From NCBI RefSeq assembly GCF_003334315.1, contig NZ_QOWR01000110.1: a stretch of DNA of 2,223 bases; one strand, given 5' to 3'. The notes under the pieces were generated by a model. That model was not told where the DNA came from, searched no databases, and was given only the letters and a program-made list of their open reading frames with translations. Both the position numbers and the translations under genes were made by a program. Position 1 is the first letter of the stretch. Each line of letters begins with the position of its first letter. Shown here in pieces: positions 191 to 1,171 of the stretch. The DNA is from Escherichia coli (lineage in GTDB: Bacteria; Pseudomonadota; Gammaproteobacteria; Enterobacterales; Enterobacteriaceae).

Positions 191-1171
191 ATGATTCAGT
201 CAACACGTATTTCCATGGGGTTATTCTTTAAATATTTTTTATCGTTAACGAAAATTGATCCTGGTCAAAACTATATATCTCTACCATCAATAAAATCCAG
301 CACTCACATTGCTCTCCTTTTTATGGTTTCTATGGGTACACAAAAATTAAAAGCTCAAAGCTTTTTTATTTTCAGTTTATTGCTGACGTTAATTTTATTT
401 TGCATTACTACCTCATATAACGAAAACACAAATGTAAAACTCATCCCACAGATGAATTACCTGATGGTTGTTGTGGCTTTGTTTTTCCTTAACGCCGTCA
501 TTTTTCTTTTCATGTTAATGAAATATTTCACTAACAAACAAATTTTACCAACACTCATTTTAAGCCTTGCATTTTTAAGTGGCCTTATCTATTTAGTTGA
601 AACCATTGTAATTATCCATAAACCAATTAACGGCAGTACACTGATCCAGACAAAGTCGAATGATGTTTCTATTTTCTATATTTTCCGCCAACTCAGTTTT
701 ATTTGTTTAACCTCGCTGGCGCTCTTTTGTTATGGAAAAGACAACATCCTTGACAACAATAAGAAAAAAACGGGAATCCTGTTGCTGGCGCTGATCCCTT
801 TTTTAGTTTTTCCCCTTCTGGCACACAATCTGAGCAGTTATAACGCTGACTATTCTTTGTATGTCGTCGATTACTGTCCGGACAACCATACTGCGACCTG
901 GGGAATCAACTATACAAAAATATTGGTTTGTCTGTGGGCATTTTTACTGTTCTTTATTATCATGCGCACACGATTAGCCAGCGAACTATGGCCGTTAATA
1001 GCATTATTATGTCTGGCATCGCTATGCTGCAACTTACTTCTACTGACTCTGGATGAGTATAATTATACTATCTGGTATATCAGTCGCGGGATTGAAGTTT
1101 CCAGTAAACTGTTTGTTGTGTCTTTTCTGATTTATAACATTTTTCAGGAGCTGCAACTCTCCAGCAAACTG
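191..1171 (+). other. N-terminal integral-membrane sensor region of CdgI (multiple predicted TM helices; MASE4-like), very AT-rich
   Basis: Hydrophobic stretches such as SFFIFSLLLTLILFCITT, LMVVVALFFLNAVIFLFMLM, ILPTLILSLAFLSGLIYLV, LSFICLTSLALFCYG, GILLLALIPFLVFPLLA, ILVCLWAFLLFFIIM and LWPLIALLCLASLCCNLLLL. Domain boundaries are approximate and judged by eye. Confidence 0.6.

Follow-up and report, generated by a model that had tools for sequence, protein, structure and literature searches.

The AT-rich 5' region of cdgI in Escherichia coli is an old, conserved feature of the yeaH-cdgI-dgcJ locus

Why does the 5' part of cdgI lie so far below the G+C content typical of Escherichia coli, and does this composition mark the region as horizontally acquired, as silenced by H-NS, or as a preferred target of the insertion sequence IS1 found beside it? 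A sequence-only reading of the locus had proposed all three. The stretch of DNA that we analysed (the window) is 2,223 nt long and contains an E. coli-type yeaH-cdgI-dgcJ locus with an insertion sequence at each end. Alignment showed that K-12 (NC_000913.3) is collinear with window positions 127–2146 at 99.9% identity. The ORF at 191–1666 is cdgI (yeaI, b1785), as it has the same sequence as b1785 apart from 3 nt and occupies the same yeaH/dgcJ interval. Our own observations cover composition and its split by codon position, conservation, synteny, purifying selection and IS1 breakpoints; H-NS occupancy, lack of expression and the target preference of IS1 were taken from the literature. The parts of the window are as follows.

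1–126, minus strand: terminal 126 nt of an IS1 copy, with the inverted repeat ...GGCAGCATCACC at its end and the transposase pointing away from cdgI
127–190, plus strand: 64-nt remnant of the yeaH-cdgI spacer, 29.7% G+C, containing the IS1 junction (aligned to K-12, NH-21 and EC21Z-137)
191–331, plus strand: first 47 annotated codons of cdgI, 31.9% G+C, probably an untranslated leader
332–715, plus strand: first ~128 conserved membrane-domain codons of cdgI, the core of the AT trough, 31.2% G+C
716–1171, plus strand: remainder of the MASE4 domain, 40.6% G+C, GC3 0.48
764–770, plus strand: A7 run at which natural cdgI alleles have repeatedly frameshifted (from sequence and truncated proteins)
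1172–1666, plus strand: GGDEF domain of CdgI, 43.8–44.1% G+C, GC1 0.537, GC3 0.457
1848–2146, plus strand: 5' end of dgcJ (yeaJ), ~100 codons, cut by an insertion sequence; ~50% G+C, host-like
2147–2223, no strand assigned: end of an IS2-like element (IS2 variant), inserted in a stretch of 55–61% G+C

Window positions 1–126 were identical (100%) to nt 643–768 of a 768-bp IS1A copy in locus L001, as oriented there, and matching E. coli records annotate the element as an IS1A family transposase. At the other end, dgcJ matches in E. coli genomes stop at window position 2146. The element that follows matched 103 records at ≥99% identity and 5,819 at 90–95%; its end resembles the IS2 terminus, and the matching records gave no IS2 annotation. 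Its junction with dgcJ was found in none of 5,426 complete E. coli genomes. Within cdgI, four truncated proteins (P0024, P0020, P0029 and P0030) all diverged exactly at the A7 run. An Rfam scan of the window returned no match.

Hand counts had put the G+C content at about 23% for positions 361–420 and about 47% for 1381–1440; the computed values, 23.3% and 46.7%, showed these counts to be exact. Across 191–1171 the G+C content was 35.7%, and in the rest of the ORF it was 43.8% with the stop codon and 44.1% without it (Fisher test, N- versus C-terminal part, p = 0.0018). The host background was 230 kb of K-12, drawn from five regions chosen without regard to the locus. Windows of 981 nt in this sample had a mean of 51.0% (sd 4.0%), and only 0.6% of them were at or below 35.7%. 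No 525-nt window of the same 230 kb was under 31.4%, the value of positions 191–715. The 5' region of cdgI was also the deepest G+C trough of its 40-kb K-12 neighbourhood. The N-terminal region therefore lies as far below the host as had been claimed, and the departure held up in the computed profile of a host that is not itself AT-rich (99.9% identical to K-12). We concluded that the region is genuinely AT-rich, to a degree well outside what chance would give.

The region was AT-rich as described, but the boundaries first given to it, 191–1171, did not stand. The trough began upstream of the ORF, in the spacer remnant, held at 30–32% G+C from 127 to about 715, and then gave way to the 40.6% of positions 716–1171. 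That is, the deep trough runs from 127 to about 715, and over these several hundred base pairs (30–31%) the G+C content is far below that of the host.

We compared the N-terminal (191–1171) and C-terminal parts of the gene by codon position. GC1 was 0.358 in the N-terminal part and 0.537 in the C-terminal part (p = 2e-4), whereas neither GC2 (0.303 vs. 0.329, p = 0.61) nor GC3 (0.410 vs. 0.457, p = 0.33) differed. Because the contrast was confined to codon position 1, the G+C step between the membrane and GGDEF domains is an amino-acid effect. Host codon usage applied to the N-domain protein predicted 40.2% G+C, compared with 35.7% observed and 49.7% in background coding DNA; thus, about two thirds of the N-domain deficit came from amino-acid composition and about one third from synonymous choice. 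GC3 was lowered only in the first part of the ORF (0.349 for 191–715, p about 0.02–0.05), and GC3 of 716–1171 did not differ from that of the GGDEF domain (p = 0.74). For 332–715 the three positions were GC1 0.305, GC2 0.266 and GC3 0.367, the last a marginal dip (p = 0.058). The gene as a whole had a GC3 of 0.43 compared with 0.52 locally, and both domains were lowish. A check of codon adaptation, which had been suggested for the region, revealed only mildly low values: CAI was 0.36–0.37 against a reference of ribosomal-protein genes and gapA, nearly equal in the two domains and at the 15th–19th percentile of 93 sampled genes. We dropped CAI as a test of foreignness, as it was low-normal, not an outlier, and did not discriminate.

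These data raise the possibility of a pure protein-composition effect, in which the residues required by a multi-pass membrane domain (Phe, Ile, Leu, Tyr and Asn) have AT-rich codons, and neither H-NS nor origin plays a role. The restriction of the N/C difference to codon position 1 and the two thirds of the deficit predicted from amino acids alone agree with this reading, as does the fraction of FYMINK residues, which was 0.376 in the N-terminal part and 0.299 in the C-terminal part. Moreover, a domain step of 5–8 points was present in every homologue, including that of a GC-normal Enterobacter. The same Enterobacter gene also limits the argument: the dgcT-like gene of E. cloacae had GC3 0.60–0.61, with 46.5% G+C in MASE4, 52.5% in GGDEF and 56% in the flanks. 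Therefore, MASE4 does not force a G+C content of 35%, yet the 6-point domain step persists. Control genes from K-12 also spoke against composition acting alone. The 38 listed membrane/signalling genes had 40.5–55.7% G+C, most of them 44–56%, and only dgcT among the genes compared equalled cdgI (38.6% G+C overall). We rejected a membrane domain as a sufficient cause on the strength of these controls. Furthermore, the non-coding spacer and leader were as AT-rich as the codons that follow, whole-gene GC3 was under the local background, and three ChIP studies report H-NS binding (PMC3661553). Protein composition is already insufficient as the sole cause, and we regard it as unlikely to be the full account of the locus.

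The protein itself belongs to the MASE4-GGDEF family by its domain architecture. Pfam placed MASE4 at aa 88–319 (E = 1.3e-48) and GGDEF at aa 328–485 (E = 1.3e-44) of CdgI, and the domain split read earlier from the sequence agrees with the Pfam boundary. In the alignment, the A-site of CdgI was degenerate (EGEVF, where homologues carry GGEEF), whereas the I-site (RxxD) was intact as RPDD, in the context ...SIRPDDILARLEGEVFG..., with R396 and D399 invariant. On these motifs CdgI is predicted to be a c-di-GMP binder rather than a cyclase. In agreement, CdgI has been reported to bind c-di-GMP via its intact I-site (Sarenko et al., PMC5635695). The same work found CdgI undetectable in laboratory culture, with very low or no yeaI expression, and reported that CsrA represses CdgI and that the overexpressed GGDEF domain is toxic (PMC5635695).

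The closest comparison is dgcT (ycdT), the other MASE4-GGDEF gene of E. coli K-12, which lies next to pgaABCD. The two proteins were 37% identical over 449 aa (E = 2e-100) and aligned end to end. Like cdgI, dgcT had an AT-rich upstream spacer and MASE4 region (30–37%) followed by a GGDEF domain at 45–49%, and its product is likewise undetectable and CsrA-repressed (PMC5635695). The genes differed in two respects: DgcT has kept the catalytic GGEEF motif where CdgI has EGEVF, and dgcT stayed at ~33–37% G+C across MASE4, whereas cdgI reached ~40% in the second half of that domain.

The comparison of homologues also bears on where cdgI begins. Residues M45–M48 of CdgI coincide with the start of DgcT, of the E. 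albertii and Citrobacter orthologues and of ~40% homologues. In-frame stops were present upstream in two Escherichia species (L013 and L014), and codons 1–47 had dN/dS of 0.37 and 1.70, compared with 0.06–0.10 downstream. Together, these observations suggest that the annotated cdgI start at 191 is probably wrong, lying 44–47 codons too far upstream. With the later start, positions 127–331 would form a 205-nt AT-rich spacer and leader at 31.2% G+C, and such AT-richness would be ordinary for a regulatory region.

Published data place H-NS on this tract. Panyukov and Ozoline (2013, PMC3661553, Table 1) listed the yeaI 'promoter island' 1868534_304, a 304-bp interval inside yeaI at U00096.2 position 1868534. 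Their mark 'A' for it denotes H-NS binding in each of the three ChIP datasets that they compared (Grainger, Kahramanoglou and Oshima). Three of five predictors (GIST, with one of whose islands it overlaps, Nakamura and Lawrence-Ochman) called it 'foreign' (PMC3661553). The wording 'A/T-rich promoter island of yeaI' also appears in PMC4433220. We converted the U00096.2 coordinates with an offset of +1976, and the neighbouring ydjO/cedA island served as a check on this offset. The yeaI island mapped to window positions 316–619, at 29.9% G+C and inside the trough, and most of it is included in 332–715.

The H-NS ChIP data come from K-12; in the window's strain, IS1 replaces the distal part of the spacer.

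Our own scans added no support for the 'promoter island' beyond composition. The H-NS high-affinity motif TCGATAAATT, allowing up to 2 mismatches, had 3 matches in the window vs. 3.6 expected, and sigma-70-like sites numbered 6 vs. 5.4 expected from dinucleotide shuffles; the window contained no terminator. A promoter scan of the spacer returned one sigma-70-like match, TTTACA-16-AACAAT at 152–179, which is a consensus match only. We found no hns-mutant data on cdgI in the literature. The H-NS-bound promoter islands (PMC3661553) and the region described here are the same locus, and the cdgI product is likewise undetectable in culture (PMC5635695), but a simple sigma-70 consensus scan gave no excess of promoter-like sites here. 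The gene also differs from textbook islands (prophages, LEE, and the bgl or cas regions) in that it is a core gene, keeps its synteny across genera and evolves under purifying selection. As for the proposed H-NS-silenced segment, H-NS binding is on record (PMC3661553), but the domain contrast, confined to GC1, is no evidence of an N-terminal segment silenced separately from the rest.

To place the composition in time, we turned to the distribution of the gene. cdgI was present as a single copy in 5,424 of 5,426 complete E. coli genomes, at 98–99.9% identity; it is a core gene, and the patchy presence expected of a recent acquisition was not seen among these genomes. A scan of one genome per species over 100,044 species returned only 12 loci, which belonged to species and clades of Escherichia, to four Citrobacter species and to one Enterobacter, apart from a 214-nt Methylobacterium fragment that is probably spurious. 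We found no AT-rich lineage that could have been the donor, and the family seems to be limited to a few genera of enterobacteria. Other Escherichia and three Citrobacter species shared the order yeaG-yeaH-cdgI-dgcJ-yeaK; CdgI was only 57–61% identical there, while YeaG and YeaH were 94–99% identical. The gene was thus not missing from the syntenic site in these species, and its divergence within Escherichia was not discordant with the flanks. Within Escherichia, cdgI dS was 0.61–0.83 for MASE4 and 0.42–0.61 for GGDEF, comparable to yeaH (0.52–0.64), and dN/dS was 0.05–0.10 in both domains, ~10x that of yeaH. Because dS was comparable and dN/dS low, cdgI has co-diverged with its neighbours under purifying selection. 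The composition was shared as well: the orthologues in Escherichia and the three Citrobacter species had 35–37% G+C in MASE4, 41–43% in GGDEF and 48–53% in the flanks, with GC3 of ~0.38–0.45 in both domains and GC1 of ~0.35 (MASE4) vs. ~0.50 (GGDEF). Given this shared profile, the synteny, dS and dN/dS, any foreign origin would be ancient and would involve the whole gene.

An alternative that dispenses with transfer is that cdgI is a native, silent, weakly constrained, terminus-proximal gene drifting to AT by mutational bias, with H-NS binding as a consequence. Several observations are what such drift would produce, namely expression that is low or undetectable (PMC5635695), a dN/dS ~10x that of the neighbours, a regional GC3 that is already lowish (0.42–0.47 in ydjF-ydjJ, for example) and vertical inheritance in synteny. 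The direction of change is opposed to it. Polarised third-position changes in cdgI comprised 58 W>S and 42 S>W, compared with 81 to 106 in yeaG and yeaH (p = 0.019); for the closest pair the counts were 16:10 vs. 32:49 (p = 0.069). These counts were made by parsimony, whose known common-to-rare bias runs the same way, so that they are not decisive and the indication that cdgI is slowly gaining G+C is only suggestive. In addition, composition was near-identical in lineages with saturated synonymous sites, which favours a composition that is stable over one that is still decaying. On balance, we judge ongoing drift improbable as the explanation.

Recent transfer or mosaicism restricted to the N-terminal two thirds, the literal form of the original proposal, would fit the sharp G+C drop at the cdgI 5' end and the foreign calls of composition-based predictors for yeaI (PMC3661553), but we consider it highly improbable given a gene carried by nearly all of the E. 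coli genomes surveyed, located identically in other Escherichia and in three species of Citrobacter, with comparable dS in MASE4, GGDEF and the flanking yeaH, a paralogue (dgcT) that aligns end to end with the same profile, and no mobility genes flanking it in the ancestral arrangement. A recently acquired or mosaic N-terminal segment was excluded as a candidate by the core status, the synteny, the comparable dS and the matching dgcT profile. Of the suggested horizontal acquisition, what stands is the 'foreign' label from three predictors; its recent or N-terminal-only form fell to a core, syntenic gene whose dS is like that of yeaH.

We also considered the IS1 copy beside the gene. It abuts TCGCTTTAA... 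at 127, which leaves 64 nt before the annotated ATG, and breakpoint mapping points to TCGCTTTAA at 127–135 as its 9-bp target; the target context had 25% G+C over ±25 nt. Strains NH-21 and EC21Z-137 carried a different IS1 variant in the opposite orientation, with a 9-bp duplication at window-equivalent 122–130. This insertion, 5 bp from the window junction, is clearly an independent event. IS1 has thus inserted independently and recurrently near the same site, a qualitative observation made at this locus alone. Further IS1 sites at the locus were mapped as follows, each given with the source of the site.

824–832: p10A
about 1009: read-through tail GDAANLLI of P0011, 934 member sequences
1184–1192: DA33133 and many others
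1287–1295: Iso00041
1966–1973: I3, inside dgcJ
window-equivalent 2254: Iso00041, next to a deletion

In all, the locus held at least 7 IS1 target sites. Duplications of 8–9 bp accompanied six IS1 copies in other strains; the window itself holds one IS1 end only. Four of the mapped sites were in DNA of 38–43% G+C within cdgI and two were in dgcJ, and none of the mapped sites fell within 191–715. In a spread sample, 59 of 60 E. coli genomes had an intact single-piece cdgI match, a sample too coarse for rates of IS disruption.

Shiga and colleagues reportedly found in 2001 that IS1 transposition requires H-NS. Other published work describes a strong preference of IS1 for AT-rich 8–9 bp targets (PMC10359306) and promotion by H-NS of IS1E insertion into AT-rich repeats (PMC3000339). 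'Transposon capture' by H-NS has been shown for IS5-family elements, in a paper that does not mention IS1 (PMC11335895). The suggestion that a preference of IS1 for AT-rich DNA accounts for the nearby insertion is plausible for the spacer, given a second IS1 only 5 bp away and the published preference (PMC10359306), but insertions were not concentrated in the most AT-rich stretch, as 191–715 had none.

Taken together, the results lead us to favor, as reasonably probable, an explanation in which three superimposed layers make up the AT-richness. The first would be a core tract of ~590 nt (127–715) at 30–31% G+C, consisting of the spacer, the probable leader and the first ~128 real codons, and corresponding to the H-NS-bound yeaI 'promoter island' of K-12. 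H-NS presumably polymerises over this tract and, with the reported CsrA repression, would silence a c-di-GMP-binding CdgI that is toxic when overexpressed. The second would be a whole-gene layer, seen as GC3 of ~0.41–0.46 in both domains compared with ~0.52 locally and 0.6 elsewhere. This low GC3 is common to dgcT and to the Escherichia and Citrobacter orthologues, and it may mark an old AT-rich lineage of MASE4-GGDEF genes, which either came into the ancestor of these genera or originated there, with hardly any amelioration since. The third would be the domain step, in which a MASE4 domain rich in Phe, Ile, Leu, Tyr, Asn and Lys yields low GC1, and a soluble domain rich in Gly, Ala, Asp, Glu, Val and Arg yields high GC1. 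IS1, with its AT-rich targets and H-NS dependence, has entered the 25–27% G+C spacer in at least two independent events, 5 bp apart. We infer both the silencing by H-NS as the function of the tract and the foreign origin.

A further idea is that selection has kept the spacer, leader and ~128 codons at 30–31% G+C as an H-NS nucleation element, conserved and lying partly within the gene, that silences the toxic paralogues cdgI and dgcT across Escherichia and Citrobacter. Under this idea, the two IS1 insertions would have changed silencing in the manner of bgl and would be more than neutral hits in AT-rich DNA. The likeness to activation of the bgl operon by an upstream insertion sequence is that here IS1 lies in a 25–27% G+C spacer just upstream of a silent cdgI. 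The case of cdgI differs in being known here from sequence, where one IS1 end in the window fits a simple insertion or a rearrangement. We hold this idea to be doubtful, and we prefer the three-layer explanation.

We concluded that the AT-richness of cdgI is an old and conserved feature, already published as H-NS-bound, and that it is ordinary and known. Its significance is small beyond annotation hygiene, since an AT-rich, H-NS-bound and "foreign-looking" yeaI and the AT preference of IS1 have both been published. For annotation, a corrected cdgI start would shift part of the "coding" AT-rich tract into a regulatory leader. More generally, a G+C step at a domain boundary may be wholly a first-codon-position effect and is not to be read as mosaic acquisition, and composition-based "foreign gene" calls may flag genes that have been inherited vertically across genera.

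The annotated start of cdgI (window region 191-331) probably lies 44-47 codons too far upstream, as judged from sequence comparison. All homologues compared start at CdgI residues M45/M48 (nt 323/332), and two Escherichia species carry in-frame stops upstream of these methionines. Values of dN/dS for codons 1-47 were 0.37 and 1.70, while those for downstream codons were 0.06-0.10.

Within the MASE4 domain, a run of seven adenines (window 764-770) is a recurrent frameshift site. The truncated CdgI alleles P0024, P0020, P0029 and P0030 (protein records) each diverged directly after the residues NNKK, and P0024 comprised 385 member sequences. 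Separately, position 414 of the window holds a window-specific non-synonymous difference: Ser75 (TCA), compared with Leu (TTA) in K-12 and close Escherichia homologues.

Natural deletion fusions joined the CdgI N-terminus to DgcJ, at two different breakpoints, or to YeaL (records P0021, P0035 and P0006). These fusions indicate structural instability of the cdgI locus in a subset of strains. Some strains also carried two IS1 copies at the locus: both copies lay within cdgI in strain p10A (locus L023), and in strain Iso00041 (locus L024), which also has a deletion extending to yoaI, cdgI and dgcJ each held one copy. In the window, dgcJ was cut after ~100 codons by positions 2147-2223, which we take to be the end of an IS2-like variant. 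The G+C content around this insertion was 55-61%, in contrast to the IS1 site. The IS2-like/dgcJ junction was found in 0 of 5,426 complete E. coli genomes, a result that points to a source lineage rich in IS elements, such as Shigella.

We compared cdgI with its paralogue in the K-12 region L005:

L005 12300-14234 (NC_000913.3 1,092,300-1,094,234): dgcT (ycdT), MASE4-GGDEF paralogue of cdgI

The two genes had equal G+C content (38.6%) and shared one profile, with an AT-rich spacer plus MASE4 region. An IS3 copy lies directly downstream of dgcT in K-12. A further MASE4 fragment, 41% identical and encoded on a 214-nt contig labelled Methylobacterium organophilum (L022), is probably a contaminant or spurious.

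Alignment A2 of CdgI homologues revealed that the degenerate A-site (LEGEVF, window 1397-1411) occurred only in Escherichia orthologues, where the motif reads EGNVF in E. albertii and EGEVF otherwise. The I-site RxxD did not vary across the alignment. Because GGEEF is retained in DgcT and in the Citrobacter orthologues with conserved synteny, the predicted loss of catalysis is confined to Escherichia.
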